64,000 nucleotides of DNA from an uncultured delta proteobacterium. Its GTDB lineage: Bacteria > Desulfobacterota > Desulfobacteria > Desulfobacterales > JAFDCJ01. The notes under the pieces are model-generated. The model was not told the DNA's origin, made no database searches, and saw only the letters and a list, made by a program, of their open reading frames with translations. Positions 1,963 to 63,265 of the stretch are shown here, one piece after another. The stretch covers positions 160,001 to 224,000 of the forward strand of contig CAVYNY010000007.1 of the NCBI GenBank assembly GCA_963769935.1, in the 5' to 3' direction. The position numbers were made by a program, and so were the translations under genes. The first letter of the stretch is position 1; each line of letters begins with the position of its first letter.

Positions 1963-1985
1963 CAGCTAAATAGGGGAGTATCGCC

Positions 1986-4830: not shown

Positions 4831-4850
4831 TCATCGGCAAAACAAGAGAT

Positions 4851-7189: not shown

Positions 7190-7251
7190 TGTTTAGGGAT
7201 TCGCAGACAGGCGTGCATGTTGTGAGTTGTTAGTTGTCAGTTGGAAAAAAT

Positions 7252-9620: not shown

Positions 9621-9712
9621 TGGGATTATGTGCAATCAATAACTGGAGATAACTCGTTCGAATTAATACGAGACGGAATTTATTATCATGCTTTAATCTG
9701 GAGTCTGCTAAA

Positions 9713-9964: not shown

Positions 9965-9996
9965 AGCCGGAATTATGATTGGAAATGAGGTTCAAA

Positions 9997-11562: not shown

Positions 11563-11774
11563 GTTAGGATTGAATATTGAAAATTGAAGATTGAATATTT
11601 AAGGAATTCTGTCGTTTTTAATTGTTTAACAAATATCCGATGCTTATTTTTGAAAACCAAGGGTATAAGCGGTTAGAGCGATTGAAATAATGGAACAATC
11701 CAAATTTATCCTATGAAATATACGCAGTATCAGCGAAGCGAATTTCATTAGGACCATCAAAACGCTAAAAAATT

Positions 11775-12719: not shown

Positions 12720-12729
12720 TTAACGCTAA

Positions 12730-13135
12730 GTACAGAGTTTCATAAATACGGTAACGTATAATCTACTGAAGCCCTGCCGATGATTTGACCTCGTTGCCGA
12801 TGAATGATTTTAAATTTCACCGCAAAAACGCAGAGAGCGCAAAGGGCACTTTTCTTTTCATTTGCCTTTGAGAGGAAGGCAAATGAACAACAACCAGCCT
12901 GCGGCAGAAGATAGTCAGTTTACTTAATTAGATTAACCGCAGATATAAATTATACATTTTTTACCAAACCATGCAATTCGAAGAGCAGATTTGTGATTTG
13001 CCCAGGGGGGCTTGAATCTTATTATTTGCCGTCCTCTCAACGGCAAATATAAATATTTTCTCTCTGCGTCCTTCGCGCCTCTACGGTGAAAAAATATTAC
13101 TGCGAATACGTCATCGTAATTATAAATGGGTGTAC
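12730..13135. mobile_element. MITE-like non-autonomous element with terminal inverted repeats and a TAA duplication
   Basis: Left end TAA|GTACAGAGTTTCATAAATACG and right end CGTAATTATAAATGGGTGTAC|TAA. Nested internal inverted repeats (caccgc..gcagagagcgc / ctctctgcg..cggtg). Related copies at 23317, 24386 and 63275. Confidence 0.7.
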
Positions 13136-13281
13136 TAAGTTATTAATTCAGTTGACATTAAACGTTCGCATTGGTATGTAACTGCTTGAATTCCCAGTCT
13201 ATACCTGAACATCGGATCGAAAGTGAACATCTTGGTTGTCCGACCGTAAAATAATCAATTCTATAAAAAAGGTTGAGATCA

Positions 13282-15526
13282 ATGCCTTACACTCAGGAGA
13301 ACCGATTTATTGCAATTGAGACCCCGCTGGGCAAAGATGAACTCCTTTTGGCAGGCTTCAGAGGTAACGAAGGTATTTCATCCCTTTTTCATTTTGATCT
13401 GAATCTTCTTTCGGAAAACCACAATGTGGTTTTCGAAAATATCATCGGCCAAAATGTTACCATCTCCATGGTATTGAATGACGGTTCCCAGCGGTTCTTC
13501 AACGGCATCATTTCGAGCTTCTGCCAGGAAAGGGGCGGCGGCCTTGTCAGGATCGAATGAGGATCTCGCTTATTATACGGCCGAAATGGTGCCCTGGTTC
13601 TGGCTGCTGACCCGCAGTGCCAACTCCCGTATCTTCCAGCAGCTTTCGGTGCCGGATATCGCCGAAAAAATTTTTCAGGAAAAAGGTATTCTCGATTATA
13701 AGCTGTCGCTGCATGCCACCTATGAGAAACGGGATTACTGTGTTCAATATCGTGAAACCGATTTCAACTTTATCTCACGCCTTCTGGAAGACGAAGGTAT
13801 TTGCTATTTTTTTAACCACGAAAAAGGCAAGCATACTCTGGTGCTGGCGGATACCGTCGAAGATTTCAAACCCTGCCCGAAGCAGGAGGAAGCCAAATAC
13901 CAACTGACGACCGGAGGCTGGCTCGATGAAGATGTGATTACGGGATTTGAAAAGCGTCAGAAGATCACGGCCAGCAAATACACCCACACCGATTATAACT
14001 TCAAAACCCCGGCCACGGATCTGAAAGTGGAAGTGGCCAGCCAGCAGGCCATCGCCCCCAAGGAACTGGAGATTTATGATTATCCGGGAGAATACGACAA
14101 ACGTGCGCTCGGAGAAAAGCGCAGCAATGTGCGCATCCAGGAGGAGGAGATCAAAATCACCACGATTACCGGGTCAAGCAACTGCCGGGCTTTTAGCAGC
14201 GGGTATCGGTTCAAGCTTGACGGCTACTTTCGGGAGGATATGAACAAGAAGCCGTTTGTGCTTGCCTACCTCGACCACACGGCCAATGAAGAGGAGACTT
14301 ACCTGTCGGGTTCCGGCAGCGGTGAATTTGCTTATGTGAATAACTTTACCTGCACGCCCTTTGATGTGCCTTATCGATCCCCCAGAATAACACCCAAGCC
14401 GGTCATGCAGGGTACCCAGACAGCGATCGTCACCGGACCTTCCGGCGAAGAAATCTATACCGATGAGCACGGACGGGTCAAAGTTCAGTTTCACTGGGAC
14501 CGCGAAGGCAAAAAGGACGAGAAAAGCTCCTGCTGGGTGCGGGTCAGCCAGGCCTCGGCCGGCGCCGGCTGGGGGGCTGAATATATTCCCCGCATCGGCC
14601 AGGAAGTGATTGTCGATTTTCTCGAAGGCGATCCGGATAAACCCATCATCATCGGCCGGGTTTATCATGGCAACAACAGGCCTCCCACGGGGCTGCCGGC
14701 AGCCGGAATGGTCAGCGGTATGAAGTCAAACAGCACACCTGGCGGCGGCGGCTATAATCAAATGACGATGGACGACACCAAAGGGCAGGAAAAGATTACA
14801 ATTCACGGTCAATACAATATGGACACCACGGTTGAAAATGATCAAACTCTGACGGTCAACAACAACCGGACGAGTACAATAGCCGTGGACGATTCCGAGA
14901 CCGTGGGCAGCAATCAGACTATCAATGTCGGTTCAAATCAGAACGTCAGCATTGGGGCCGACCAGAGTACCTCTGTGGGCGCCAATCAAACGACCAATGT
15001 CGGCGCCAACCAGAGTGTGGCTGTAGGTTCTGCCCAATCGGTTACCGTCGGAGCGAGCAAGACCGAAACGATTTCGGTTGCCAAAGCATTAAGTATCGGC
15101 GCGGCATATCAGGTGAGCGTAGGCGGCGCAATGAATGAAACGGTCGGCGCTGCAAAAGCGGAGGAGATTGGCGGAGCCAAGATCGTCGGAGTGGGCGGAT
15201 TAAGCAGCGAAAACGTTGCCGCCAAAAAATCCGTAAATGCAGGCGGCAGTATTTCGGAGAAGGCCGGCAGCAATATCTCGAGTACCGCTGGAGGAAAAAT
15301 CGACTTAAGTGCCGGTGGTAATTTTACTGCGTCAAGCAAAGCGAACGCTTTGATCGAAGCTTCGAGCGAAATAACTCTAAAGTGCGGCGGCGCTTCCATC
15401 GTTCTGAAAAGCGGCGGTGATATCACAATCAAAGGCAGCAATATTACTCTTGATGGATCCGGTAAAATAAACGCCAAGGCCGGTGGCACAATGACTTTAA
15501 AAGGAAGCAGTATTAAAGAAAATTAA
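13282..15526 (+). pseudogene. vgrG: VgrG (TssI) split by a +1 frameshift near 13540 (pseudogene or sequence error)
   Basis: N-terminus MPYTQENR..GNEGISSLFHF..RFFNGII stops at 13560. The +1 frame continues with YYTAEMVPWFWLL, YCVQYRETDFNFISRLLE, IYTDEHGRVKVQFHWDR, IPRIGQEVIVDF and gp5-like 8-aa VG.NQ repeats. Confidence 0.9.
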
Positions 15527-15551
15527 GTCAAAATGAAACAGGATACCGATA

Positions 15552-16127
15552 ATGCCAAAAAGCGAAACCAAATCCGAATTCAGCCTTGTTTCTGAAGAAC
15601 AGCCGCAAGGGCTGGTCGATCTGCTGACCGTTGTTTTGTCAAATCCCATGGGGTCGAATAGTCCCGCAACACTTGAGACTCGCTCGCAACCAACGCCGAC
15701 AGAAAAGATAGACGGCATTGTTATCGGTAAGGTCGTCGAAGTCGAAGGCTTGCAGGTTGATTATCCCGGGAATCCCGCCGGAGAACCGTTGAGCGCGCTC
15801 TCTACCCGCAATGTCGGCAGGGAAGATATCGGCAGGGATGTTGCGCTGGCTTTCGAATCCGGCGATCCATGCCGTCCCATTCTAATAGGCTTTATACATC
15901 AGCCGCAGGATATTGAGCGCGAAACCCCGAGAGAATTCGATGTTAAAAACGTTCATTTGGACGGTGAACGATTAGAGTTGACCGCAAAAAAGGAAATTGT
16001 TTTGCGCTGTGGAGAAGCGAGTATCACGCTGACGAGAGCCGGAAAGATTATTATTCGAGGTGCGTATCTGGTTAGCCGTTCGACGGGTGTTAATCGCATT
16101 AAGGGCGGATCAGTCCATATCAACTGA
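15552..16127 (+). CDS. DUF6484-like T6SS-associated protein
   Basis: VALAFESGDPCRPILIG and IVLRCGEASITLTRAGKIIIRGAY..SRSTGVNRIKGGSVHIN. Lies directly after vgrG. Confidence 0.75.
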   Translation: MPKSETKSEFSLVSEEQPQGLVDLLTVVLSNPMGSNSPATLETRSQPTPTEKIDGIVIGKVVEVEGLQVDYPGNPAGEPLSALSTRNVGREDIGRDVALAFESGDPCRPILIGFIHQPQDIERETPREFDVKNVHLDGERLELTAKKEIVLRCGEASITLTRAGKIIIRGAYLVSRSTGVNRIKGGSVHIN

Positions 16128-16140
16128 TGAAGATGCAGCT

Positions 16141-17163
16141 ATGTGGGCCATAAAAAATAGAACACCATATGCAGCGGAGAGCAACTGGGTCCTCGACAAA
16201 AATGCTGAAAAAAGTTGGGTTGTTGTTGTAAAGGGCATTTTCGATATCAAACCCGATGGGACTGCCAACCTGTCGGAAGAGCAGGACGCGCTGCCTCTTT
16301 ACTCGCCTGAATATTCCGGGGAACCAGGAAAATCCAGTCTTGTCTACGAAGCGGATCTTCTTGGCTCCAAGCAATGTACAGATGTCATATTAATCGGTTC
16401 TGCCTATGCAGAGAAAGGAAGACCCGCAACTAAAGTAGACGTTAGTTTGAGGGTCAACAATTTGATCAAGCGGTTAAAAGTGTTCGGTGACCGTTACTGG
16501 AAAAGGGGAATTTTGGGCGGTCTATCAATGACCAGCCCTAAGCCGTTCAAATCAATGCCGATTAAGTATGAGTGCGCTTATGGAGGATGGGACACGCGTT
16601 CAAAGAACCCGGGCGAGCATCGTCTTGAGCCGCGCAACCCCATTGGCACCGGTTTTGCCGTGCGCAGCAAACATCTGGTTGGTCAACCGTTGCCGAACAT
16701 TGAATATCCAAAACAACTGATATCTTCCTGGAAGAATCGTCCCAACCCTGCAGGTTTTGGACCGATTGCCAGCTATTGGACGCCACGGAAGGAATATGCC
16801 GGCACTTATGATGAACAATGGCAAAAGGAAAGATTTCCACTGTGGGCGAAGGACTTCGATGTGAGATTTAATCAGTGCGCTCCATTAGATCAGCAAATGA
16901 CCGGATTTCTGCATGGCGGGCAGCGAGTTGAATTGATAAATCTTAGTCCCAACGGACGTATTAGTTTTGAGTTGCCCAAGGTCTACCCATTTTTTGTCAC
17001 CCGATTTGGTAAAGAACGTGTTGAACATCGCGCTGACCTTCATACGGTCATTCTGGAACCGGAAATCCCCAGGGTTATTATGGTTTGGTACACCAGCCTG
17101 CAGTGCCACCACCGAGTCGATGAATTAGACATGACTGTTATATCTGAAAAGCAGTATATTTAG
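16141..17163 (+). CDS. DUF2169 T6SS effector adaptor
   Basis: NRTPYAA, VVVVKG.F, K..TDV.L.GSAY, VFGDRYW, PAGFGPI...W.PR..YAGTYD..W and FNQCAP.DQ. Confidence 0.9.
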   Translation: MWAIKNRTPYAAESNWVLDKNAEKSWVVVVKGIFDIKPDGTANLSEEQDALPLYSPEYSGEPGKSSLVYEADLLGSKQCTDVILIGSAYAEKGRPATKVDVSLRVNNLIKRLKVFGDRYWKRGILGGLSMTSPKPFKSMPIKYECAYGGWDTRSKNPGEHRLEPRNPIGTGFAVRSKHLVGQPLPNIEYPKQLISSWKNRPNPAGFGPIASYWTPRKEYAGTYDEQWQKERFPLWAKDFDVRFNQCAPLDQQMTGFLHGGQRVELINLSPNGRISFELPKVYPFFVTRFGKERVEHRADLHTVILEPEIPRVIMVWYTSLQCHHRVDELDMTVISEKQYI

Positions 17164-17207
17164 CTTCATCAAAGTGAGAGACGCTGCAAATATATGGGCA
17201 TCGCTTT

Positions 17208-18284
17208 ATGTTGACACCGGCCAATATTAGTCAGGTTGGGATAGTTGGTATCGGCGCTCGCACGCCGGTCGGATTAACAGCTGCGGCTTCTTCTGCTGCC
17301 GTTCGTGCTGCAATTTCAGCGATCGGGGAGCATCCCTATTTTATCGACAAGGCAGGGGAAAAGATGTGCGTTGCGAGAGACGCTAATTTGCCGCCGCAGC
17401 TTGGAGGGGTGGAAAGGTTTTATGAGCTTGCTAAACCCGCCATGGAGGAGGCGCTCCTGCCTTTGATTCAATTCAATAGACAGGTACCTATACCTCTTTT
17501 TCTCGGTTTGCCTGAATCACGTCCGGGCGCGCCTAAGGACCTTGCTCAAGAAATAGCACATCGTCTGGATTCATTCTCATTCGCAAATAATTTACGTTTG
17601 ACGACCACCACGCTTCCTTATGGGCATTCTGCAGGTTTAATGGCCATGGAAGAAGCGTCACGCAGGATTCGGCAAAGGCAACAGGACTGCTGTCTCGTTG
17701 GCGGTGTTGATTCCTACCTGGAAGCCGAAACCCTTGAGTGGCTGGATGATGAAGGGCAGCTGATGTCCGGGGAAAACCGATCGGGCTTTCCACCTGGTGA
17801 AGGTTCGGGATTTTGCCTGCTTGCCTCCAAAGAAGCGGCCCATAGAATCGGTCTTTCGGTTTTAGCCGATATCGTTGAAGTCGCTACAACCATTGAAAAA
17901 AACCGCATTAAAACGGAAACCATTTGCATCGGCGAAGGACTGACTTCTGCCTTTTCAACCGTGGTTAAAGGACTCAAGTTGCCGGAGGAAAAAATCAGCG
18001 AAATTCACTGTGATATGAATGGTGAGCGTTATAGAGTCGAAGAGTTTGTGTATACCGCTTTGCGAATGCAAGCTGCATTTGTCGATGTCAATGATGCCCA
18101 ACATCCTGCTGACTGTTGGGGCGACGTCGGGGCTGCCTCGGGACCGCTATTCGCATGCCTTGCTGTGGCTTCGAGCCAACGTGGATATGCCAATGGGCCG
18201 CTGGCCTTATTATGGACGAGTTCGGAAGGCGGCCAACGCAGCGCTGCATTGCTTCATCTTCCGCTGGAAATAAGTGGGGCCTAA
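17208..18284 (+). CDS. Beta-ketoacyl-synthase-like T6SS accessory protein (probably non-catalytic)
   Basis: Thiolase-fold motifs GIGARTPVG, LVGGVDS, PGEGSG and GDVGAASG. GHSA sits where the catalytic Cys normally is. Confidence 0.85.
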   Translation: MLTPANISQVGIVGIGARTPVGLTAAASSAAVRAAISAIGEHPYFIDKAGEKMCVARDANLPPQLGGVERFYELAKPAMEEALLPLIQFNRQVPIPLFLGLPESRPGAPKDLAQEIAHRLDSFSFANNLRLTTTTLPYGHSAGLMAMEEASRRIRQRQQDCCLVGGVDSYLEAETLEWLDDEGQLMSGENRSGFPPGEGSGFCLLASKEAAHRIGLSVLADIVEVATTIEKNRIKTETICIGEGLTSAFSTVVKGLKLPEEKISEIHCDMNGERYRVEEFVYTALRMQAAFVDVNDAQHPADCWGDVGAASGPLFACLAVASSQRGYANGPLALLWTSSEGGQRSAALLHLPLEISGA

Positions 18285-19163
18285 ATGCCGTCAATTTCAG
18301 TAAATCCACCGAAGACCCCTGTCACCGAAGGCAGTGGCGACGTCGCTCCCGCGACCTTGCCGAATGTATGTAAGATGCCCGGGCCGCCTGCTCCCTTCGT
18401 GCCGACACCGTTGCCGAATATCGGCCAGTCGAGCGACAATCTTGCTGACTGCACAACAAAGGTATTATTTGAGGGCAAGAAAGTCGCTATAAAAGGCTCG
18501 TACTACTTGAGCAAACTATCTGGCGACATGGCCAGCAAAAGCTCCGGCGGTGGAATCGTTTCTGCATCAGAAGAAGGAAAGACAGCCTTTGGCGCTCCGG
18601 GCTCCATGAATGTCAAAGCAGAAGGAAAGAATATTCAGCTGTTGTCGGATGCAATGATGAACAACGGCAGCAATCCTTACAATTCCGGAACAGTTCCCGG
18701 AAATCAGCAAAGCCCGGCACTTTCCGGGGTTGAGAAGATGATCGCCGATGATTTATGTGATGAATTCTGTGAATATTTAAAGGATTGTAAGAAGAATGGA
18801 ACCAAACCATCCTCGCGCGGATTGGAGCAGCGGCTAGCCAATGACCCTAAATGGCAGGGCCTGGGAATAAGTTTCCCACCCAACAGCAGCATCCCGTCGG
18901 TTATCATCGAAGGGACTCCTAACGCCGCGGCCGTTATGGCAAGAAAGGTAATCGACAGTCTGGCTTTGGAGGGCGGTGCATTAAGAGTGATTCAAATAGT
19001 ACCGGACGTTGTCTTTAAACAAAATGGTATAGTTCAGCGTATTTTTGACTTTAAATTCAAGTGCAATAAGGATCGTTGGCGATCTGACGGCGAGTGGGAG
19101 GCTTACACTGAAGCGTCGGGCAAGGAGCCTGTTACCATTACAGAAAGTACTTGTGGCTGCTAA
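18285..19163 (+). CDS. DUF4150 (PAAR-like) protein with a C-terminal PD-(D/E)xK nuclease-type toxin (TseV/VRR-Nuc-like)
   Basis: N-terminus PNVCKMPGPPAPFVPTPLPN..GSMNVKAEGKN. C-terminus VPDVVF...IFDFKF..DRW..EAY...CGC. Followed by DUF3396. Confidence 0.75.
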   Translation: MPSISVNPPKTPVTEGSGDVAPATLPNVCKMPGPPAPFVPTPLPNIGQSSDNLADCTTKVLFEGKKVAIKGSYYLSKLSGDMASKSSGGGIVSASEEGKTAFGAPGSMNVKAEGKNIQLLSDAMMNNGSNPYNSGTVPGNQQSPALSGVEKMIADDLCDEFCEYLKDCKKNGTKPSSRGLEQRLANDPKWQGLGISFPPNSSIPSVIIEGTPNAAAVMARKVIDSLALEGGALRVIQIVPDVVFKQNGIVQRIFDFKFKCNKDRWRSDGEWEAYTEASGKEPVTITESTCGC

Positions 19164-19176
19164 AGGCAGGACGAAC

Positions 19177-20091
19177 ATGACGACACCTGAAAATTTTGAC
19201 GCATTTACGTTCAGGCATGAGGGCTCTATTTATCTAATATTGTGCCTTGACATTACCCTATATTGGACAGGCTCAGTATTCGACCATAAAAAAGAAATAC
19301 TGAATTTCTACAACCGAAGTATGGAAATCGTTGGAAAGGACCTGAAACTCTACCGTACCGAGACGATGCGTCGATATCGTGAAGTCACTGCGGGCACATT
19401 GGAACTGCTTCCTTTCTGGCTGACGGAACCCAGCGCACGTCGCGATTTGTATTTTCTGACCATGAATGGTTCCTTAAATGCAGAAGACGCATCGGATAAG
19501 GCATTTTTTCTTCGCGTAAATGAGGTCAAAAAAAGAGGCGCCTTAAGATTGGTTCTGCCGACAAGCTGGATTAATTCCGCGTCTGACAAGTTAAGCGAAC
19601 TCATAAAAGAGCTGGCGTTTGAGTTCAAATTCGCCTCAGGACATGCGGGCTATTCCTTTAATTTGAGTGACGACATCTCTTTAAGATCCTATGCTCAGAG
19701 TGAACTATATCGTCTGGGTATGAGATATCCCGGCATCGACATACCATCTCTGACCACATCCCTTTTCGTTGTCGATGACGGCATTAAGAGCATCAACTGG
19801 TTGACGCTGGTAGGTAATCAGCATTTGGAACGACTTGGCTCAATTGAATCCCTCAGCCAGATGCTGGGTGATCAAATCTTAATCGAAAATCTTCAGCACG
19901 GGGTCATGTTTCAAGCAGGGCCCGATCCGGAAATCGGGGATGTTAATCGCCACAAGATTTTGCCCTTGTATCACAAGATTGGCAGCGCTCTTTCGATGAT
20001 CCGGGCTTCCGAGCATCCACCATTTATCGTCCGTGAAAAACTCGCAGACGATGATGCTACGCAGGCCTGGTTGAGTCGGTTTGACCATTAA
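19177..20091 (+). CDS. DUF3396 (TsiV-like) T6SS immunity protein
   Basis: SGHAGY, RYPGIDI, IKSINWLTLVG, QAGPDPEIGD and WLSRFD. Lies directly after the toxin. Confidence 0.85.
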   Translation: MTTPENFDAFTFRHEGSIYLILCLDITLYWTGSVFDHKKEILNFYNRSMEIVGKDLKLYRTETMRRYREVTAGTLELLPFWLTEPSARRDLYFLTMNGSLNAEDASDKAFFLRVNEVKKRGALRLVLPTSWINSASDKLSELIKELAFEFKFASGHAGYSFNLSDDISLRSYAQSELYRLGMRYPGIDIPSLTTSLFVVDDGIKSINWLTLVGNQHLERLGSIESLSQMLGDQILIENLQHGVMFQAGPDPEIGDVNRHKILPLYHKIGSALSMIRASEHPPFIVREKLADDDATQAWLSRFDH

Positions 20092-40172: not shown

Positions 40173-40176
40173 TGCC

Positions 40177-41984: not shown

Positions 41985-43622
41985 TTACCGGGCGGCGGTT
42001 TTGTCGTTGCGGTCGAAATGTTCATTCATGAATTTCGCAAGGTCTGATGTGTCGAATGTGAATTTCATGTTTTTCCTGAATTTAGCGAGGTCGTCATACA
42101 AAGCTGAAGCGCTCTGATATCTTACCTCTTTTTTCTTTGCCAGGCATTTCATAACGATGTCATTGAGTTCGGCCGGGATCCCCTCTCTCGCTTGCATTAA
42201 AGGTTCGATCTCCAATGTTGGAATAGCTCGAATAGCTTCCACATCCGTGTCAAAAGCGTAGACTTTTTTTCCACTGATAGTTTCATAGAGAACCAGACCA
42301 AGGGCATAAATGTCGGTTCTTTGGTCGATGGGTTCTCCTAGTGATTGCTCGGGGGATAAATAAGCCAATTTTCCTTTAATGACGCCGGCCAGGGTTAGGC
42401 TCGGCTCGGATATTGCCTTGGATATGCCGAAATCGCTTATTTTTACCTCGCCTTCATAGGAGATCAGCATATTTTGCGGACTGATATCCCGATGGATAAT
42501 TTCAAGGGGTTGGCCGCTGTCGTCATCCCGCCGGCTGTGAGAATAATCCAGGCCTTTGCATATTTTGGAAATGATGAATACGGAATGTTCAATGGGCAGC
42601 CCCTTTCCCAAAGCTGTCAGGATTTCCTTTAAATTTTTCCCATGGATATATTCCATGGCAATGAAATAGGCGTTTTCGATATTGCCGTAGTCGAAAATTT
42701 GAACAACATTGGGGTGTTGTAATAGCGCGGCCAGGCGCGCTTCCCGGGTGAACATCTTGATGAATTCCGAATTTCCAGCCAGGTGCGGCAGGATGCGTTT
42801 TATGGCAACCTTTCTTCGAAAACCGTCTTCCCGTTCGTAATCCGCCAAAAACAATTCGGCCATTCCGCCCTGGGCAACCTTTTGACGAATCAGATAGGGC
42901 CCGATGCGCTCCATGTTTGCAATTTCCTGCTTGATTTTTAACACCCTGGCTTTGGCCCTGCGGTCATGCCAGAAAATTATCGCAACGGCTAAGACAGCAA
43001 GCAGAGCGATCCCGGAAAAATATATGCTCCGTGAAAAATTTATGAATCGATTAAGATCGGCGGTTGAAAGGTCGATATAGACCGCTCCGATCTTCACATT
43101 AGAAAACGTTATATCTTTAAAAAAACCGATATCTTCCGTGTTGTCCGGTAAATGATTTGCAGTTACCGTGACTTCGTCCCTTACAGCGATCGGTTTTTGA
43201 TTCTGAGGGGGCTCGAACTTACCAACTCTCGGTTCAGCGCCTGCCTGCGCCAGAATCGTATTTGTGTGATCAGTAATCACTGCGAAATTAAGGCTTTTGA
43301 TCTTCTCCAGTTCTCTGATTTCAACGCTAAGGGCAAGCTGCTCTTTTTCCAATACCAATGGTGCGCTTTTGGCTGCCAAATCGGCGGTAGCTGCGAGACC
43401 TTGCTGATAAAGATCATTTCTTGCCCGCTCAACGCCGGAGCGATAAACAAAATAGCCGGCTAAACCGGCAACCAGCCAGACAGCGAGGCAGAGGACGATT
43501 GTTTTGCCATTGCGGCGCATAAATTCCATTTCTTTTATATTTTTTGATATTCGGTTGAAAATGCTCGTTGAAAATTCCTTTACTTTTACCGCCGTCGTTG
43601 ACGCAATATCGGTCGCAAACAT
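41985..43622 (-). CDS. Membrane receptor Ser/Thr kinase (TM - periplasmic domain - TM - kinase)
   Basis: GGMAELF, VAIK, HRDISPQN, DFG and YLSPEQ. Two TM helices. SD AGGAGG before 43622. Confidence 0.93.
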   Translation of the reverse strand: MFATDIASTTAVKVKEFSTSIFNRISKNIKEMEFMRRNGKTIVLCLAVWLVAGLAGYFVYRSGVERARNDLYQQGLAATADLAAKSAPLVLEKEQLALSVEIRELEKIKSLNFAVITDHTNTILAQAGAEPRVGKFEPPQNQKPIAVRDEVTVTANHLPDNTEDIGFFKDITFSNVKIGAVYIDLSTADLNRFINFSRSIYFSGIALLAVLAVAIIFWHDRRAKARVLKIKQEIANMERIGPYLIRQKVAQGGMAELFLADYEREDGFRRKVAIKRILPHLAGNSEFIKMFTREARLAALLQHPNVVQIFDYGNIENAYFIAMEYIHGKNLKEILTALGKGLPIEHSVFIISKICKGLDYSHSRRDDDSGQPLEIIHRDISPQNMLISYEGEVKISDFGISKAISEPSLTLAGVIKGKLAYLSPEQSLGEPIDQRTDIYALGLVLYETISGKKVYAFDTDVEAIRAIPTLEIEPLMQAREGIPAELNDIVMKCLAKKKEVRYQSASALYDDLAKFRKNMKFTFDTSDLAKFMNEHFDRNDKTAAR

Positions 43623-44913: not shown

Positions 44914-45933
44914 GTGATGACTTATATTCAGATTATTCTATTAGCCGCTCTGATAATGCCGGCAGGTTTACTTTCCTGCGTTCCTATCGGTCCAGCCTCA
45001 GGGTATTCTTCCTCAGGGGACTCATCCCAAAATATTTTTAGATCAAAGGAATTTATCGTCTATCAGTTGCCGACAGCCGCAACGTCGACTGAATTGGCCG
45101 AACGGTTTCTGGGAGACAGCCATAAGTCGTGGCTGATCGAGGAGTCCAATCCAGGCGCTGGCTTTAACAGCGGCGAGCTGATTGTCATTCCGCTGAATCA
45201 TTTCGACAGGGGTGGATTGTGGAGAGACGGTATACAGACAATACCCATCCTCACCTATCACCGGTTTTCCAATGATTGCAGTTCACCGCTTTGCGTGGGC
45301 AGCAGCATTTTTGAGAATCAGATGAGATATCTGAAAGAAAATGATTTCCATGTCATTTCACCGGAGCAGCTGCTCGCCTTTCTGGAATACAGGGAGGGCT
45401 TGCCGAAAAAATCCGTATTGATCACTATGGACGATGGATATCGTTCAGCTTATGAGATTGCTTATCCCATCCTCAAAAAATATGGCTTCACGGCGACGTT
45501 TTTTATTTATACGAATTTTGTCGGCGTATCCAAAATGGCCATTACCTGGGATCAACTGAAAGAACTGAAAGCAAATGGATTTTCAATCGGTTCTCATACC
45601 ATAAGCCACAGCGATTTGACCCAGCGCGAGGACGGGGAAACCGAGGCTGATTGGATGGCCAGGATTGATAAGGAACTTCACGGTTCCAAGCAAATACTCG
45701 ATAAAAAATTGAACCAGGATACGATATCGCTGGCCTATCCGTACGGCAAATATGACCAACGTGCCATCGAAACTGCCCGAAAAGCCGGCTACAAAATGGC
45801 GATGTCGGTCCAAAGAGGCGGCAACCCCTTTTTTGCCGATCCCCTGTATCTGCGAAGGGACATGATATTGAAAAAGGATCTGCAAACATTTATCTCCAGA
45901 CTGAATACTTTTAAACCCATGTCGTTAAAGTGA
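44914..45933 (+). CDS. Lipoprotein: LysM-like domain plus CE4 polysaccharide deacetylase
   Basis: Lipobox LLSC. ILTYH, ITMDDG, SHTISH and AYPYG. The N-terminal LAERFLGD..W.I..N..GELIVIP is LysM-like. Confidence 0.88.
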   Translation: MMTYIQIILLAALIMPAGLLSCVPIGPASGYSSSGDSSQNIFRSKEFIVYQLPTAATSTELAERFLGDSHKSWLIEESNPGAGFNSGELIVIPLNHFDRGGLWRDGIQTIPILTYHRFSNDCSSPLCVGSSIFENQMRYLKENDFHVISPEQLLAFLEYREGLPKKSVLITMDDGYRSAYEIAYPILKKYGFTATFFIYTNFVGVSKMAITWDQLKELKANGFSIGSHTISHSDLTQREDGETEADWMARIDKELHGSKQILDKKLNQDTISLAYPYGKYDQRAIETARKAGYKMAMSVQRGGNPFFADPLYLRRDMILKKDLQTFISRLNTFKPMSLK

Positions 45934-45940
45934 GAATGCC

Positions 45941-47365
45941 ATGAAAACAAGAGCTGGAATTATCGGTATTATCTTTTTGTGCGTGCTGGCAAACGGTTGC
46001 GCAACCTTGGGGACCAAGTCGTCCCCCAAAAATCGTGAGCAGTTGGCTGATGAGTATCAGACCAAAGCCCGGGATTACGAAGCGAAAGGTGAATTGGTTG
46101 AAGCGCTGGAACAATACAGACTTTGGCTCACGGTAGATCCTGAAAACAAATCGGCTCAGGATAAAAGCACGCAGATCGGACAGGAACTTCAAAAGTTGGC
46201 CGAAAGCCATTATCAAAGCGGACTGGCCTACTATCAAAAGGGGCAATACACTCCGGCCCGCCAGGAATTTTTAACTGCCCTCAGAGATGATCCGGATCAC
46301 CAGGGGGCAAAAGAGATGCTTATAGCCAATCGAGAGTTGGAACAGGTCGACAGATATGTATTGCATACGATCCAACCGAATGAGACCCTTGCAACATTGG
46401 CCAAACAATACTACGGCGACTATAAGAAATTTCATTTGATCGCCATATACAATGGCATCGAGGACGCCACTAAAGTCAGGGTCGGACAGCAGATTAAGGT
46501 TCCGGTCTTCGAGGGGGTCCCGATTATGGCAGATCCATCGAAAATTCTGACTGTTTCCGGCAAAGCTCCTCAAGCAAAACCGGAAGAAATCATAACGGTT
46601 AAAGGTTTCGTCGTCCATACCGTTAAAGCTGAGGATACCCTGTCGAAGCTGGCAAAAGAGTATTACGGCGATTTAAAAAAATTTGATCTCATTGCCAAGT
46701 TTAACGACATGCAGGTATCCGACAGTCTGCAGGTCGGACAGGAGATTAAAATCCCTGAGGTCGAGGGCGTGCCGTTTCTGGCACCTGAAGCCAAAGAGCT
46801 GACAGAGATCAAAACGCCGGAAGCGGAGGCCCCGGCGGCGAAAGAAGCACAGCCGGAAAAAGCTGCAGAGGAGCCGGCAACAGCCAAAGTGGAGGCCTCC
46901 GAAGAAGACCAGGCGGCCGCTTACCGGAAGTCCGGCATTGAGTTCTATCAGGATAAGAACTATGCGGACGCGGTAGTAGAACTGCAGAAGGCTTTAAGTG
47001 CAAATCCGGATGATAAGGTTACTAAGGATTATCTGTCGTTAGCCTACTTTGAACAAGGAGTTGCTTCCTTTAACAAAGAGGACTATTCTCAGTCCATCAA
47101 GGCGTTCGAAACCTCCCGGCAGTTCAACAGCAGCTGTGAAAAATGTGAATCGTATCTAAAGCAAAGCCAGGAAAAATTCAAAGATCTTCATTATCGCCAA
47201 GGGGTCTCGTATTTCGGGCAGGAAAAACTGGCCGAAGCCATCAGCGAATGGCAACAGGTTTATAACATGGATCCGAACTACAAGGACGTCAGCAAAAATA
47301 TATCCAAGGCTCAAACATTGCTGCAACGCCTTGAGGAAATACAAAAGAGCAATCAAAAAAAATAA
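45941..47365 (+). CDS. Lipoprotein with TPRs and two LysM domains
   Basis: Lipobox ANGC. HTIQPNETLATLAKQYYGD and HTVKAEDTLSKLAKEYYGD. TPRs on both sides. Confidence 0.9.
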   Translation: MKTRAGIIGIIFLCVLANGCATLGTKSSPKNREQLADEYQTKARDYEAKGELVEALEQYRLWLTVDPENKSAQDKSTQIGQELQKLAESHYQSGLAYYQKGQYTPARQEFLTALRDDPDHQGAKEMLIANRELEQVDRYVLHTIQPNETLATLAKQYYGDYKKFHLIAIYNGIEDATKVRVGQQIKVPVFEGVPIMADPSKILTVSGKAPQAKPEEIITVKGFVVHTVKAEDTLSKLAKEYYGDLKKFDLIAKFNDMQVSDSLQVGQEIKIPEVEGVPFLAPEAKELTEIKTPEAEAPAAKEAQPEKAAEEPATAKVEASEEDQAAAYRKSGIEFYQDKNYADAVVELQKALSANPDDKVTKDYLSLAYFEQGVASFNKEDYSQSIKAFETSRQFNSSCEKCESYLKQSQEKFKDLHYRQGVSYFGQEKLAEAISEWQQVYNMDPNYKDVSKNISKAQTLLQRLEEIQKSNQKK

Positions 47366-47515: not shown

Positions 47516-49009
47516 ATGGCCAACCAAACCGCAACCACGTCGATTGCGCCCGCCCCCCCGCCGATCAGGGTGAGAATCGAAAAAGGCACTGCCGACAAAA
47601 GCGAGTATGTGTTTACCCAACCATTTCGCTGCGGGCGCGATGAAAGCTGTGAGGTACGACTTGCCGATACGGCGGTGAGTAGATTTCATGCCGAATTTTG
47701 GTTTTCGGCCGGAAGATGGTGGATACTCGATTTGCAAAGTGGCAATGGATCGTACCTGGATGGAACGAAAGTCGAACGTGCGCCGATAGCAACCCTGGCC
47801 AGAGTCCAGCTGGGCGATGATGGTCCGGTGCTTCTCTTGACGGTTGAACGGGTTCCAACGGCTGAAGACGTTAAAGAAGATAAAAAGGTTCAAGACCGGC
47901 CCCGCTCACTTGAACACTACCAGGAGCACTATTTCCAGGATACTGAAAAAGGCAATGTCGGCGAGCATACGATGATGATCCGGCAAGCCTTTAAAAGGGT
48001 CCAAAACCGCCAGAGAGGAAGATTTATCGCTGTCATCTCGATTTTGAGTTTTTTGGTTCTAGCCGCCGGTATATATGCTCTGTACAAACATCAGGAAGTT
48101 TCCAAGCAAAAATTATTGGCCGAGGATATTTTCTATGCCATGAAATCCATGGAGCTTGAGTTTGCGCCGCTTGTAAAGATGGCCAGACTCAGCCAGGATG
48201 CCAACCTTCTGGCTAAGGTCCAGGAGTACCAAGCCCGCCGCAAAGTGCTGGAAAACAAGTATGACAAGTTTATCGAAGCACTTGAAATCTATAAGAAAAG
48301 CATCAGTCCCGAAGAAAGGATCATTCTGCGTATCGCCCGTATTTTCGGTGAGTGTGAAATAAAAATGCCTGAGGGTTTTGTGCACGAAGTGTTGAATTAC
48401 ATTGAGAAATGGAAAGCCACCCCCAGGCTGAAAATGGCTGTTCAACGGGCCCGGCAAAGAGGCTACACCACCAAAATAGCTGAAACCTTGCTGGCTCATG
48501 ATTTGCCCCCCCAGTATTTTTATCTGGCCCTTCAAGAGAGTAATTTTGACCCCGAGGCTTGCGGACCGGAAACCAAATGGGGCATTGCAAAAGGAATGTG
48601 GCAATTCATACCGGATACAGCTGTTGTTTTCGGTCTTCGCACCGGCCCCCTGCAAGATCAGCGACGGCCGGATCCGCTCGACGATCGCCATGATTTTGAA
48701 AAGTCGACCGAAGCGGCCGCCAAGTACATTAAGGCCATTTATGATACGGATGCCCAGGCTTCCGGGCTGCTGGTTATGGCCTCCTACAACTGGGGTGAAA
48801 GACGGGTGAACCGGCTCATTAAAACAATGCCTGAAAATCCACAGGAAAGAAATTTCTGGCTTCTGCTGGACAAATATAAAAAGCAAATTCCCCGTGAGAC
48901 TTACGACTATGTGTTTTCCATCTTTTCAGCCGCCGTCATCGGCGAAAACCCCGCTCTTTTCGGCTTTGACTTTGAAAATCCGCTGATGCATATCGAAAGC
49001 CGATTGTAA
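47516..49009 (+). CDS. FHA - TM - lytic transglycosylase (SLT/MltD-like) fusion
   Basis: FHA GR, VSRFHA and SGNGSY. TM FIAVISILSFLVLAAGIYAL. SLT motifs QESNF, GMWQFIP.TA, ASYNWGE and ETYDYV. Confidence 0.9.
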   Translation: MANQTATTSIAPAPPPIRVRIEKGTADKSEYVFTQPFRCGRDESCEVRLADTAVSRFHAEFWFSAGRWWILDLQSGNGSYLDGTKVERAPIATLARVQLGDDGPVLLLTVERVPTAEDVKEDKKVQDRPRSLEHYQEHYFQDTEKGNVGEHTMMIRQAFKRVQNRQRGRFIAVISILSFLVLAAGIYALYKHQEVSKQKLLAEDIFYAMKSMELEFAPLVKMARLSQDANLLAKVQEYQARRKVLENKYDKFIEALEIYKKSISPEERIILRIARIFGECEIKMPEGFVHEVLNYIEKWKATPRLKMAVQRARQRGYTTKIAETLLAHDLPPQYFYLALQESNFDPEACGPETKWGIAKGMWQFIPDTAVVFGLRTGPLQDQRRPDPLDDRHDFEKSTEAAAKYIKAIYDTDAQASGLLVMASYNWGERRVNRLIKTMPENPQERNFWLLLDKYKKQIPRETYDYVFSIFSAAVIGENPALFGFDFENPLMHIESRL

Positions 49010-54126: not shown

Positions 54127-55311
54127 ATGAACTACGGTCGGTACGAGGTTGTTGATGAAATTGGCCAGGGTTCAATGGGGGTTGTTTATCGGGCCTATGA
54201 TCCCCAAATCAATCGGCACATTGCTTTGAAGCTATTGCGCCAGGACCGGGTCACCAGCGAGGAATTGGTGCAGCGATTTCTCAAAGAGGCCCAGGCCATG
54301 GGAGGGCTTTCGCATCCCAACATCGCCACCGTTTACGATACGGGACAGGATCACGGCACCATCTTCATTGCCATGGAAATATTGAGGGGTAAATCCCTCA
54401 AAGACCTTATGGGGGAAAAGAAATTAAGTCTTAATGAAATTGTTCATATCGGCGTTCAGGTCGCCGAAGCGCTTGACTTTGCCCACCAGAAAGGCATTGT
54501 GCACCGGGACATAAAGCCCTCCAATATCATTATAGATCCTAAAGGCAATGCAAAAATCACAGACTTCGGCATTGCGCACATCGAGGATCCTGCCGGCACC
54601 CAGCAAACGATACCCGGACAAATTTTAGGCACCCCCCTTTACATGTCGCCCGAGCAGGTCATGAGCAATCCCGTGGACGGGCGCTCGGATCTTTATTCTT
54701 TGGGGGTTATCCTATATGAGATGACCACCGGAACCCCTCCCTTTAAAGGCGATAACCTCGCCGCCATCTTCCAGGCAATTTTGCAGGGGACACCCCGGGC
54801 GCCGGAGCTGGACGGATCTCCTGTTTCCCGGAACCTCTCCAATCTGATTATGAAGAGTTTGAACAAAGATCCCGCCAAGCGATTTCAGACGGGCCTGGAG
54901 ATGGCACAACCGCTCAAAGGTTGTCTTCAGAGGAGGCAGTCGGATACCATCCGGGGCGTGAGGCGTCCTGAAAAACGCAAACGCCTTTTTCCCATGGTGT
55001 TGGCAGCCATAGTACTCCTTGCCGCAGCCGCCGGATTGATTTATTTTAAGACCGGCAAAAGTACCCCGCCGGAAAACAAGCTTTTAGCAGTTTTAAAAGT
55101 CGAGAGCGATCCCTCGGGCGCCAACGTTTTTTTAAACGACTCCCTTAAAGGCCAAACTCCTCTGACCATTGATCTGCCTCTCGGGAAATATGAAATTCGT
55201 TTAAGTCGCCAAAATTTCAATGAATGGGAAGCTCAACTTCAACTGGATGAAGCGGGTGAAACGCCTTTGTTTGTAAGGCTTATTGCCGTGGAAAAAAATC
55301 AGAACCCATAA
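54127..55311 (+). CDS. Ser/Thr kinase - TM - PEGA domain
   Basis: GQGSMGVV, IALK, HRDIKPSN, DFG and GTPLYMSPEQ; TM; PEGA SDPSGANVFLN..GQTP. Confidence 0.95.
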   Translation: MNYGRYEVVDEIGQGSMGVVYRAYDPQINRHIALKLLRQDRVTSEELVQRFLKEAQAMGGLSHPNIATVYDTGQDHGTIFIAMEILRGKSLKDLMGEKKLSLNEIVHIGVQVAEALDFAHQKGIVHRDIKPSNIIIDPKGNAKITDFGIAHIEDPAGTQQTIPGQILGTPLYMSPEQVMSNPVDGRSDLYSLGVILYEMTTGTPPFKGDNLAAIFQAILQGTPRAPELDGSPVSRNLSNLIMKSLNKDPAKRFQTGLEMAQPLKGCLQRRQSDTIRGVRRPEKRKRLFPMVLAAIVLLAAAAGLIYFKTGKSTPPENKLLAVLKVESDPSGANVFLNDSLKGQTPLTIDLPLGKYEIRLSRQNFNEWEAQLQLDEAGETPLFVRLIAVEKNQNP

Positions 55312-57802: not shown

Positions 57803-59515
57803 ATGATCGAGGGGGGACTATTGCCCACGATGCGTTTCAAAATCGTTAACACGGATGATCCCAATCTTGTTTTTGAGACAGATCGGCGAGAATTCGCACT
57901 CGGCAGATCCAAAGAGTGTGAGATCGTCATCCAAGATCCTTCTATTTCAAGGGTTCAGGCCCGGGTTCGGTTTGAAAGCAACCGTTTTTACATTGAAAAT
58001 ACAGGGCAAAATCCCGTTCAGATAAATGGCGCACCCACAGCCGGCCAGTTTCTCAATGACGGTGATCAAATTACGCTGGGCACAACCAGTTTCCGGTTTC
58101 AAGCAGACCGGACTTTTGATGTAACACCGCATCCGATCGCTTTTGACGAGAAAACAATCGCCGTTGGCTCCCTGCCGAATCATACATTGGGTCCACGCCT
58201 GGTTCTCACCACCGATGCCGGCGACACGCAAGCATACCCCATGAATAAGGACCGCCTTATCATCGGTCGGTCCGAAGATGCAGACATCGCTTTGCAGGAT
58301 CCCTCCATTTCGCGCCAACACGGCATAATCGAACAGCGGGAAGACGGGTATTTTGTCAAAAACTTGAGCCAAACCAATCCGTTATTGCTCAATGATGCGA
58401 CCGTTTCCGACAATCGCCTTTATTCAGGGGATCTTATTCGCGTCGGCTCTTTTTATTTGACTTTCGTATCAGACCGGCCCGAGGACGCCAAACCCATCGA
58501 GGAGAAGATCATCACTCAGCAAAAGGGACCGGGGTGGGCGCTCTGGCTGGCAGCGGCCTGCTTAATTCTGATTGCTGGAAGCTTCTTGCTTTACCGGCAT
58601 GCTTACTATCCCTGGAAAATTAATCGGAACCTGAAATCAATTGCCGGTCAAATTGCGGCGGGCAAATATCAGCCGGCCCAAGACGCGCTGCGGCGTCTGC
58701 TCACTAAAGGCGTCTCGCCGGACAGCAGGCGCAGGGCCAGAGAGCTGCTGGCTCAGACGGCGCTGGCGATTGTGCAGAATCTGGCCGAAGCCGGCAAGCT
58801 TCCGGAGGCGGAACAATACCTGATTGCCTATCTGAAAGAATATGGCGGCGGCAAAGAAGCGGACACTCTCTGGGAGCGCCTGGATATGTACCGGGTCGAA
58901 ATCGCTCAAAACCTGGAAACCGCCTCGCAGTATCAGGCCGCTTTGGGCCTGTATGCAGCGGTGAGAGAAGACAGCCCCTATTATGGCCGCGCCCAGCAGG
59001 GCATCCGGCGAATTTGGCTTGCGTCCCAGCAGGAACAACGCCGGGATCAGAATGTGGCCCAATTGCTTCAGGAGGCTGATCAGGATTTCAGAGCCAAACG
59101 CTACCTGACGCCGGTCAACAGCAATGCCTATTCTGTTTATCAGGCCGTTCTGGCCGCAGATCCTGAGAACTCCATTGCTCTGGAGCGCATCGAGCAAATG
59201 AAAGACTTCTATCTCAGATACGGCGAAGAGTATTTTAATAAAAATAGCTGGCGCAATGCCCTGACCTATTTTGAACGATATGTTTTTATGGCACCCGATT
59301 CACCGGACATCCAGCAGAAAATCGACCTCTGCCGCGCTAAGTTGAAAGCATCCGATTCGAACGGTCCGCAGACCGGGGCAAAATCAGCCGCACCGGAAAA
59401 GAGCCGCGAGCAGGTCAAAAAATTACTCGAAGAATCCGGCGTTGAAAGTTCGCGCATCATCAAATTTCTTTATGAGGATCCGGGCGGTGAAAAAGATCCC
59501 GAAAAACCCTGGTAG
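57803..59515 (+). CDS. FHA-FHA - TM - periplasmic TPR protein
   Basis: Two GRS..I.DPSISR FHA motifs; TM WALWLAAACLILIAGSFLLY; helical TPR C-terminus. Confidence 0.88.
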   Translation: MIEGGLLPTMRFKIVNTDDPNLVFETDRREFALGRSKECEIVIQDPSISRVQARVRFESNRFYIENTGQNPVQINGAPTAGQFLNDGDQITLGTTSFRFQADRTFDVTPHPIAFDEKTIAVGSLPNHTLGPRLVLTTDAGDTQAYPMNKDRLIIGRSEDADIALQDPSISRQHGIIEQREDGYFVKNLSQTNPLLLNDATVSDNRLYSGDLIRVGSFYLTFVSDRPEDAKPIEEKIITQQKGPGWALWLAAACLILIAGSFLLYRHAYYPWKINRNLKSIAGQIAAGKYQPAQDALRRLLTKGVSPDSRRRARELLAQTALAIVQNLAEAGKLPEAEQYLIAYLKEYGGGKEADTLWERLDMYRVEIAQNLETASQYQAALGLYAAVREDSPYYGRAQQGIRRIWLASQQEQRRDQNVAQLLQEADQDFRAKRYLTPVNSNAYSVYQAVLAADPENSIALERIEQMKDFYLRYGEEYFNKNSWRNALTYFERYVFMAPDSPDIQQKIDLCRAKLKASDSNGPQTGAKSAAPEKSREQVKKLLEESGVESSRIIKFLYEDPGGEKDPEKPW

Positions 59516-61457: not shown

Positions 61458-62354
61458 TTAGGATTTGAAAAATTTGCCGAAAATTTTTTTAGCAACTTTA
61501 GGGGAAGCGGTGGTTTTGTTTTCAGCTGGCGGCGGGGTTTCCGGCGCCTGAGGAGGCACATCGGTTCTTTGCAATGGTGCGTCTTCAATTTCTGCCAGAC
61601 GGCCGGCGCCCAAAAACCGGAAGTTGGGTCCGTCGGCGCTCAGGGAGAGGCGACTTTCGGGCTGCAGTGCAGCTTGAGACGGCACGGGCGACCCATTGAT
61701 GGCAACCTGGTTTCGGCCGGTCAGATCTTTTACCCAATATTGTCCCTGATGGAAGAAAATCTGGGCGTGTTGCTCCAAAATACCGGGATGGTCGATGCTG
61801 AAATCACACGCCGGGTTCCGGCCGATGGTGACGGGCAGTTCCTTGAACGTACGCAGGGTCGGCCCATACTGAATGATCAGGGGCATCTTTGTTCTTTCGA
61901 TCTCCATTGCCGGAGCCGGCATCTCCGGCGGAGGCGGGGAAGGGGCCCGCGGAGTTTGAGGTTGAGAAGGCCGGGGCCGATTCATCCGGTCTGCTGGTAT
62001 TTCCGGAGTTTGCTGAAAATCCGCCGGTGATTCAGCAATTTTGGTCAGAAAACTGACTTTAGGCCCACCGTCGGCAAAAAGTAAAATATCGCCGTCTTTT
62101 AAGATTGCTTCGGTTATCCGTGTCCCGTTTAAAAACGTTCCGTTGGTGCTCTGATCAATTAATTTGAAACGATTGCCTTCCCTGACGATGCGAGCATGTT
62201 CGCGGGAAATGATGGCCAGATCTTTTGGGAAGCGCACATGGCAGGACGGCTGACGCCCGATGGATATTTCATTATCAGGAAATTCCTGAATTTCCCCCTT
62301 CATGGGACCCTGAATATGAACCAATTGCATAATAATGAGAGGTGCTTTTTTCAT
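61458..62354 (-). CDS. Cytoplasmic FHA-FHA protein with a Pro-rich linker
   Basis: IGR..ISREHA..STNGTFLNG. Second, degenerate FHA TIGR..ILEQHA. Confidence 0.88.
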   Translation of the reverse strand: MKKAPLIIMQLVHIQGPMKGEIQEFPDNEISIGRQPSCHVRFPKDLAIISREHARIVREGNRFKLIDQSTNGTFLNGTRITEAILKDGDILLFADGGPKVSFLTKIAESPADFQQTPEIPADRMNRPRPSQPQTPRAPSPPPPEMPAPAMEIERTKMPLIIQYGPTLRTFKELPVTIGRNPACDFSIDHPGILEQHAQIFFHQGQYWVKDLTGRNQVAINGSPVPSQAALQPESRLSLSADGPNFRFLGAGRLAEIEDAPLQRTDVPPQAPETPPPAENKTTASPKVAKKIFGKFFKS

Positions 62355-62518: not shown

Positions 62519-63265
62519 GTGCAGATGACTATGCTGAACATTAATTTTGCTGGAAAAACCAACATCGGCCTCAAGCGAACCGCCAATGAGGACGTGTTTA
62601 TCATTGAAGGCCAACGGGGATTTTGCCTGGTAGCCGACGGTTTGGGTGGGGCCGCAGCTGGTGATGTAGCCAGCCGGTTTTTTGCCGAAGCAACGGCGGA
62701 AGTATTTCGGCAGGCCGCCGATTTGGATGAAGAAAATGTCGTCAAGCGAGTTCAGGAGTCTTTCCGCCTGGCCCATGATAAAATACGGGATCATATAAAG
62801 ATAAATCCCTTACACAATGGCATGGGGTGCACTGCCGAATTGTTGGCGTTTTCCGATCAAGGGTTTGTTGTCGGACATTTGGGGGACAGCCGGACATATC
62901 GTTTCAGAGACGGCCATTTGAAACAATTGACGCACGACCATTCCCTGGTTCAGGATCAACTTGACAAGGGGCTTATCGGCGAGGAAAAGGCCAGGCGGCA
63001 TCCCCTTAGAAACGTTATTCTCAAGGCAGTTGGTATCGAGGAGGATCTGGCCCTTGATTTGATCCGCGGGCGGACCTACCCCGAGGACCAATTCCTGCTC
63101 TGTTCGGATGGATTGACGGATATGGTCGAAGACGTTGCCATCGGCAAGGTCTTTAACTCACCGATCCCGGCCGGCAAAAAAGTAGACCAGCTCATTGATC
63201 TGGCGCTTGCCGGCGGCGGCAAGGACAATATAACCGTGGTTCTCATAGATATCAAAGGATCATGA
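62519..63265 (+). CDS. PP2C-family Ser/Thr phosphatase (Stp1/PppA-like)
   Basis: R..NED, VADGLGG, GDSR, DHS, LCSDGL and GGKDNIT. Confidence 0.95.
   Translation: MQMTMLNINFAGKTNIGLKRTANEDVFIIEGQRGFCLVADGLGGAAAGDVASRFFAEATAEVFRQAADLDEENVVKRVQESFRLAHDKIRDHIKINPLHNGMGCTAELLAFSDQGFVVGHLGDSRTYRFRDGHLKQLTHDHSLVQDQLDKGLIGEEKARRHPLRNVILKAVGIEEDLALDLIRGRTYPEDQFLLCSDGLTDMVEDVAIGKVFNSPIPAGKKVDQLIDLALAGGGKDNITVVLIDIKGS

Follow-up and report, generated by a model that had tools for sequence, protein, structure and literature searches.

Background

The start of T6SS assembly is known to involve both threonine phosphorylation (PpkA/Fha) and dedicated hydrolases that act on the cell's own wall. MltE of enteroaggregative E. 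coli and TagX of Acinetobacter are two such hydrolases, and both are needed for assembly. MltE is a housekeeping enzyme that is encoded outside the T6SS cluster, recruited by TssM and activated by it in the periplasm. TagX is a VanY-type endopeptidase with an inner-membrane anchor and a periplasmic C-terminal enzyme (for all these statements see the available parts of PMC13584744 and PMC9251886). How such mechanisms achieve their precise place and time is called unclear in the accessible portion of PMC9251886.

Some FHA domains take a threonine of their own protein as the ligand. The self-ligands of DgcB and OdhI have Glu at position -2, hydrophobic residues at -3, +2 and +3, and Ser at +1; the modes described for self-ligand FHA domains are cis, trans and fibre (PMC6733907, in the part at hand).

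In the current work we analyze a gene whose product joins an FHA domain to a lytic transglycosylase (SLT) domain. We call this product the FHA-SLT protein. The gene lies in a 64-kb stretch of DNA, the whole of which is designated "the window"; coordinates refer to the window unless a locus is named.

Homologues and alignments

The set of homologues consists of the best 120 of 7999 candidates scored in a word-index search. The loci of relatives are the best 80 of 292 matching stretches obtained by a genome scan. To compare the state of the FHA pocket with that of other residues, we pooled the loci with representative sequences. Seven duplicate or broken loci, representatives shorter than 420 aa, and rows with less than 75% of the periplasmic columns were left out. 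The 226 remaining rows, which include a few near-duplicates, comprise 193 rows with an intact pocket (R, S, and N), 19 rows with a degenerate pocket, and 14 rows without a complete FHA domain. A FastTree tree was built on the periplasmic columns.

Architecture of the FHA-SLT protein

The gene is present in one copy in the 7.99-Mb genome. Its features and those of its neighbourhood are collected in Table 1. Both domains exceed their Pfam cut-offs: FHA (PF00498) at residues 38-100 has 50.5 bits (cut-off 20.7), and SLT (PF01464) at residues 333-441 has 53.4 bits (cut-off 21.3). The FHA pocket is complete (G40-R41, S55-x-x-H58, N77-G78). Its residues G40, R41, S55, H58, N77, and G78 are kept in 119, 117, 119, 117, 116, and 117 of the 119 homologue rows that cover the domain, respectively. 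In the catalytic domain E341-S342, G360, W362-Q363-F364, and Y424-N425-W426-G427 are kept in all 120 best homologues. The protein ends seven residues past this domain, with no LysM match.

The hydrophobic segment 171-189 is the only strong one in the protein (Kyte-Doolittle 2.54). A membrane-helix peak is present in all 121 homologue rows, four of which show a second one exceeding 1.6. The stretch of 15 residues ahead of the helix contains 6.4 K/R on average, compared to 3.8 after it; K/R are commoner before the helix in 103 of the 121 rows and commoner after it in nine. Because of this excess of K/R before the segment, hydropathy and the positive-inside rule, the sole bases of our topology, would place the FHA domain inside and the SLT domain outside. 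The initial annotation described a cytoplasmic FHA domain with intact GR/SxxH/NG residues, linked through a single transmembrane helix to a periplasmic SLT domain that retains its catalytic Glu (QES). The domain composition, the single hydrophobic segment, and both sets of residues are as described there, and the predicted topology fits that description.

An AlphaFold2 model (74-row alignment, mean pLDDT 88.9, pTM 0.65) consists of an FHA sandwich, a low-confidence linker at residues 118-148, a short helix at 132-140, one continuous helix at 148-226, a second helix at 229-256, and the catalytic domain in the C-terminal part. A Foldseek search with the model matched the FHA domains of GarA, Rv1747, and DgcB, as well as MltD of P. 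aeruginosa (8rhe/8rhf/8rhi). Of the solved structures, Rv1747/GarA come closest to the FHA domain and MltD to the C-terminal part. A homodimer prediction for residues 10-495 scored 0.14, the mark being 0.42. A scan of positions 44400-49700 for promoters and terminators remained at chance level (7 vs 7.3; 9 vs 7.0).

Table 1. Features of the FHA-SLT gene and of its surroundings in the window
Feature	Position	Strand	Basis or remark
FHA-TM-stalk-lytic transglycosylase gene	47516..49009	+	497 aa, one ORF
FHA domain, approximately residues 17-110; G40-R41, S55, H58, N77-G78	47564..47845	+	Pfam, model, Foldseek, conservation
Juxtamembrane motif G149-E-H-T152-M-M-I-R156	47960..47983	+	conserved, co-lost with FHA pocket
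Thr152, proposed own phosphosite (inferred)	47969-47971	+	only [DE]-x-T-x-x-hydrophobic site in the protein
Single predicted membrane helix, residues 171-189, after a K/R-rich stretch; ends with G185-x-x-A188	48026..48082	+	
Predicted periplasmic helical stalk, residues 190-256	48083..48283	+	AlphaFold2 model
MltD-like family 1 lytic transglycosylase domain, without LysM	48308..48985	+	
Catalytic Glu341	48536-48538	+	sequence motif conservation
Membrane Ser/Thr kinase, 545 aa, candidate writer	41985..43622	-	Hanks type, HRD and DFG motifs
Ser/Thr kinase-TM-PEGA protein, 394 aa, candidate writer	54127..55311	+	Hanks type, HRD and DFG motifs
PP2C phosphatase, candidate eraser	62519..63265	+	Stp1 model 221.5 bits, cut-off 230
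Double-FHA protein	61458..62354	-	its cluster is found in 15/80 related loci
FHA-FHA-TM-TPR protein with D-E-K-T-I-A-V motif	57803..59515	+	
Polysaccharide deacetylase and TPR-LysM-LysM genes	44914..47365	+	just upstream of the FHA-SLT gene
Distal part of T6SS cluster: tssF end, tssG, clpV, vgrG, DUF2169, PAAR-like, TsiV-like immunity	53..20091	+	

Conservation and spread of the family

Both domains are present in 119 of the 120 best homologues, the remaining one being a 336-aa fragment. This excludes a chance fusion or a frameshift artefact. Clustered at 50% identity, the family has at least 150 representatives, each of which scores E<1e-94 against the FHA-SLT profile. Judging by their record titles, the 80 loci span Desulfobacterota, Acidobacteriota, betaproteobacteria, Myxococcota, Bacteroidota, Aminicenantes, KSB1, and Nitrospiria, and the homologues are 45-60% identical across phyla. 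Cultured carriers among these loci are Desulfopila sp. IMCC35008 and Aquabacterium humicola. The distribution is patchy: besides the genome under study, one of 300 genomes of its phylum has the gene (E<=1e-60). Phospho-gated fusions had initially been called unusual. The present fusion is rare, but with so many representatives it is not a one-off.

NCBIfam has no model that covers the fusion. We found no description of it in the literature, although domain-architecture tables in supplements may list it; the available parts of PMC3482391, PMC12419801, and PMC6653060 contain none. The architecture is real and conserved, and apparently undescribed in the literature.

Thr152 as a candidate self-ligand

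Thr152 is kept in 73 of the 78 close loci. Like the self-ligands of DgcB and OdhI, it is preceded by Glu at -2 (E150) and followed by hydrophobic residues at +2 (M154) and +3 (I155). The site departs from those of DgcB and OdhI by Gly at -3, Met at +1, and its position C-terminal to the FHA domain.

In the pooled rows, Thr occupies column 152 in 161 of the 193 sequences with an intact pocket vs 4 of the 19 with a degenerate one. Ser takes its place in only 4 of the 193 intact-pocket rows. Nearby columns are affected likewise: G149 is found in 163/192 intact vs 7/19 degenerate rows, and E/D150 in 115/192 vs 4/19. The degenerate rows still keep a hydrophobic residue at 155 (15/18), Q166, F206, Y249, and E341. 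Some general relaxation must have taken place in them because R156 drops too (11/19 vs 164/192). An alignment-free count gave the motif in 174/193 intact vs 5/19 degenerate rows, and in 64/193 for a background window. A Q-T-x-x-I/M-type motif is retained in a distant subfamily.

On the tree of periplasmic columns the FHA state has approximately 12 changes, which are losses. A paired co-loss test on supported branches, which is underpowered, was not significant: it yielded six pairs, 3.4 concordant and 0.0 discordant, with a median p of 0.25. The co-loss of Thr152 and the FHA pocket is one-directional, but short of proof. It is likely that Thr152 is the protein's own phosphosite, similar to those of DgcB and GarA. 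A structural role of Thr152, which the model places in a helix, is also conceivable.

Four members have a degenerate FHA pocket with Ser replacing Thr152 (L037:2429-4375, L062:9533-11344, P0144, and P0155). Two of the FHA-degenerate members, L037 and L062, are located inside T6SS clusters; therefore the T6SS role may do without the phospho-switch.

Association with T6SS across genomes

Of the 80 carrier genomes, many of which are drafts, 67 (35/40 and 32/40) have the T6SS gene tssG (PF06996). The background is 33 of 300 genomes (11%) in the phylum of the genome under study, and 21 of 200 in the phylum of another carrier, G345, where two of the 21 are weak partial matches. The only other carrier among the 300 genomes (G200) has tssG. 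Within the order of G345, with G345 itself excluded, tssG is present in 8/8 close carriers vs 40/142 other genomes (Fisher p 7e-5), and within the order of G309 in 5/5 vs 27/145 (p 3e-4); both p values overstate the significance because some carriers are close kin or already belong to the 80 loci. The phylum-wide sample around G345 (Acidobacteriota) gave 2/5 close carriers vs 19/195 (p 0.09).

In the order of G309 all five close carriers have the gene on the tssG contig, at a distance of at most 17 kb. The order-matched carriers with tssG include Bryobacterales, whose FHA-SLT gene and T6SS cluster are often far apart. Two phyla have the FHA-SLT gene directly behind tssM or tssM-tagF, namely in the arrangements tssK-tssL-tssM-FHA-SLT gene with a 21-bp gap (G702) and tssJ-K-L-M-tagF-FHA-SLT gene with a 47-bp gap (L012). 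Of the 80 fetched loci, 19 include T6SS genes, 25 a kinase, and 19 a PP2C; the 61 loci with no T6SS gene nearby include many short contigs. According to PMC13584744, a T6SS-associated gene (TAG) is encoded in a T6SS locus and is required for T6SS activity or modulates it. As to location the picture is mixed: the FHA-SLT gene stands directly behind tssM or tagF in G702 and L012, but 28 kb from the cluster in the genome under study.

A rule that the gene always accompanies T6SS is excluded by tssG-negative carriers and by the distant subfamily. Five tssG-negative carriers, all of them draft genomes (G476, G473, G424, G500, and G395), have no tssC match either, and the distant subfamily has tssG in 7/17 genomes, which is near background. 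Most T6SS-bearing genomes have no FHA-SLT gene: it is present in 1/33, 8/48, and 5/32 of them. The association with T6SS is strong, yet non-obligate. From the tssG-negative carriers, the subfamily, and the gene-less T6SS genomes we conclude that the gene is an optional accessory of one branch and not a core part. The results suggest that Desulfobacterota, Acidobacteriota, and other little-studied phyla have a T6SS accessory family that still lacks a name. Making room for a secretion complex was the example of a function given initially, and tssG co-occurrence and gene order both support this and narrow it to T6SS.

Two further families of approximately 255-260 aa with no Pfam or NCBIfam match (L012:12112-12879 and L062:11482-12264) were noticed in 16 and 14 of the 80 loci. 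They are often encoded directly behind the FHA-SLT gene in T6SS clusters.

Gene neighbourhood in the genome under study

The FHA-SLT gene belongs to a cluster that encodes two Hanks kinases, a PP2C, two double-FHA proteins, CsgG-like/TPR proteins, and a trypsin-like protease. The deacetylase and TPR-LysM-LysM genes, which are also part of this cluster, adjoin 9 and 10 of the 80 homologues, respectively. A T6SS is encoded upstream. The end of its PAAR gene is 28 kb away from the FHA-SLT gene, and its tssJKLM, tagF, tagJ, tssABC, hcp, and tssE are found shortly before the window begins. The TssL of this genome has 221 aa and consists of DotU only, with no N-terminal extension before the DotU domain. 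Among the scanned ORFs of the T6SS region of this genome, no match was found for a wall hydrolase, TagH, or an OmpA-type domain.

Several other genes of the region deserve mention. The T6SS cluster includes a 527-aa protein with Pfam matches to both TssB (VipA) and TssC (VipB) (9979-11562, +). It is additional to the normal tssB and tssC products, and several related loci encode similar proteins. The same cluster has an FHA domain fused to an adenylate/guanylate cyclase domain (11775-12719, +). Three ORFs with no Pfam match stand directly before tssJ (L086:3840-6808, from the same genome), and homologues occupy the same place in L012. Between the T6SS and the kinase cluster (24939-33774) there are RES/HEPN, TIR, and TPR-S proteins that look related to defence. 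The 545-aa kinase is paired here and in 5/80 loci with a 292-aa membrane protein that has no family match (43672-44550, -).

An MBOAT gene followed by a gene of a 1164-aa AlgX-like SGNH and SASA esterase fusion is found at 36678-41604 (-). The fusion is a putative writer and eraser of O-acetylation in one protein. O-acetylation would block lytic transglycosylases. A functional tie of the FHA-SLT gene to these upstream genes was rejected since the MBOAT and AlgX/SASA neighbours are not conserved (0/80 and 1/80 loci).

Proposed mechanism and alternatives

Our main reading, whose probability we estimate at roughly one half (about 0.52), is that the FHA-SLT protein is an inner-membrane lytic transglycosylase that opens the cell's own peptidoglycan for the T6SS membrane complex upon phosphorylation of Thr152 and its capture by the FHA domain. 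One of the Hanks kinases of the cluster (41985 or 54127) would phosphorylate Thr152, and the PP2C would remove the phosphate. The FHA domain would capture pThr152 either in cis or in trans, in the manner of GarA/OdhI, DgcB, or TIFA; approximately 40 flexible residues separate the domain from Thr152. In the AlphaFold2 model the helix whose first turn contains Thr152 continues unbroken through the membrane into the stalk. Because of this continuity, the capture would reposition the long helix or cluster the enzyme, so that cutting would be confined to the spot where the kinase is active. The opening in the wall would serve the TssJLM complex, which is the job of MltE in enteroaggregative E. coli and of TagX in Acinetobacter.

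A more specific version is possible but doubtful. According to it, the protein is a complete transmembrane switch: the kinase phosphorylates Thr152, the protein's own FHA domain grips pThr152 and unwinds or re-registers the first turn of the helix, and the periplasmic enzyme is turned on or clustered at the T6SS site. If true, this switch would physically connect the T6SS threonine-phosphorylation pathway to wall opening, a link missing so far, and an FHA domain would here signal to an enzyme on the other side of a membrane. As to the earlier idea that a pThr reader is coupled to wall cutting, the conservation of both sites and the gene context speak for it, while gating, as opposed to mere localisation, is a proposal. 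The phosphorylated kinases had been named as the ligand of the FHA domain; our results favour the protein's own Thr152 at least as much.

Is the gene dedicated to T6SS at all? It might instead belong to a mobile kinase/FHA/PP2C module for envelope signalling, in which PEGA, CsgG-like, TPR, LysM, and deacetylase proteins are partners. The FHA-SLT protein would then be the output of this module, remodelling the wall, and the module would travel near T6SS clusters but serve other envelope events, for example stress repair or another trans-envelope machine. We consider this unlikely. Here the gene does belong to a cluster of this kind and is separated from the T6SS effector genes by 28 kb, a kinase is found in more loci than T6SS genes (25/80 vs 19/80), the distant subfamily is not enriched in T6SS, and G476, in which no tssG or tssC was found, has the gene right behind that of a 941-aa kinase. 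Against it stand the presence of tssG in all close carriers of the order-matched samples (8/8 and 5/5) and the position of the gene directly behind tssM or tssM-tagF in two phyla. That position also argues against a T6SS-delivered antibacterial muramidase effector, which we find hardly credible. Desulfobulbales loci do have the gene after vgrG, DUF2169, and PAAR, the usual place of an effector gene, but the membrane helix and the FHA domain are conserved, identity across phyla is 45-60%, and no downstream partner is conserved across the family.

With a T6SS wall opener accepted, the FHA domain may merely tether it to another phosphoprotein (a kinase, the double-FHA protein, or TssL), the enzyme being ungated and Thr152 structural. 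The pThr to which Fha binds in known T6SS pathways is that of PpkA or TssL (PMC13584744 and PMC9251886, as far as their available text goes). The model places Thr152 in a helix, one helix alone would conduct a signal poorly unless the protein oligomerises, and the paired co-loss test was not significant. Nevertheless, we regard ungated tethering as rather improbable: Ser seldom replaces Thr152 while the pocket is intact (4/193), G149, E150, and T152 are selectively lost as the pocket decays, and the 221-aa TssL of this genome has no extension before its DotU domain. Finally, segment 160-188 could be an internal signal peptide, so that a cut after Ala188 would free the enzyme and phosphorylation would control its export or release. 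The region of G185-x-x-A188 fits the -3/-1 rule: a basic stretch and approximately 12 hydrophobic residues precede G185-x186-x187-A188, and the close homologues have G/S/A/T at 186 in 69/78 and Ala188 in 70/78 cases. However, our protein has Ile at -3, hydrophobic or aromatic residues go on at 189-190 and are followed by K-H, as in an uncleaved helix, and small residues at i and i+3/i+4 fit helix packing as well. We regard a cleaved form as very improbable.

Comparison with described systems

By profile, fold, and motifs the FHA-SLT protein is a family 1 (SLT) lytic transglycosylase and a predicted enzyme. The best match of its catalytic domain, both in sequence and in fold, is MltD (family 1D; PRK10783), and its catalytic E-S, GxWQF, and YNxG motifs align with those of MltD 8rhe. 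MltD is a lipoprotein. It has a C-terminal LysM, which the FHA-SLT protein does not, and the FHA domain and the membrane helix stand where MltD has its lipoprotein signal. With 56.2 bits against the PRK10783 cut-off of 508 and no LysM, the FHA-SLT protein is excluded from MltD proper. Membership in TagH/Fha1 (TIGR03354) is excluded too, there being no profile match at E<=0.001. TagH is soluble, whereas the FHA domain studied here is fused to a wall enzyme. The components of the T6SS threonine-phosphorylation pathway (PpkA/TagE, PppA/TagG, Fha1/TagH, TagF) have counterparts nearby: a kinase, a PP2C, an FHA protein, and TagF occur in the same genomes and loci.

The FHA-SLT protein shares with DgcB of Bdellovibrio and with GarA/OdhI an FHA domain joined to an output domain and to a conserved Thr of its own (here a candidate) in the context E-x-T-x-hydrophobic-hydrophobic. 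In those proteins the Thr is in the N-terminal tail, whereas the candidate Thr is C-terminal to the FHA domain and starts the membrane-crossing helix (PMC6733907 in its available part). The output also differs, as it is an enzyme on the other side of the membrane.

By analogy, and in keeping with our main reading, the FHA-SLT protein probably works like MltE or TagX, opening the wall for T6SS. It resembles TagX in its inner-membrane anchor and periplasmic C-terminal enzyme, both predicted. It differs from both in its FHA domain, since MltE and TagX have no cytoplasmic phospho-reader as they are described in the available portions of PMC13584744 and PMC9251886. The FHA-SLT protein is probably a variant of the dedicated T6SS wall hydrolases. 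Its family unites phospho-reading and a wall hydrolase in one polypeptide, in which R41, T152, and E341 are the residues to mutate.
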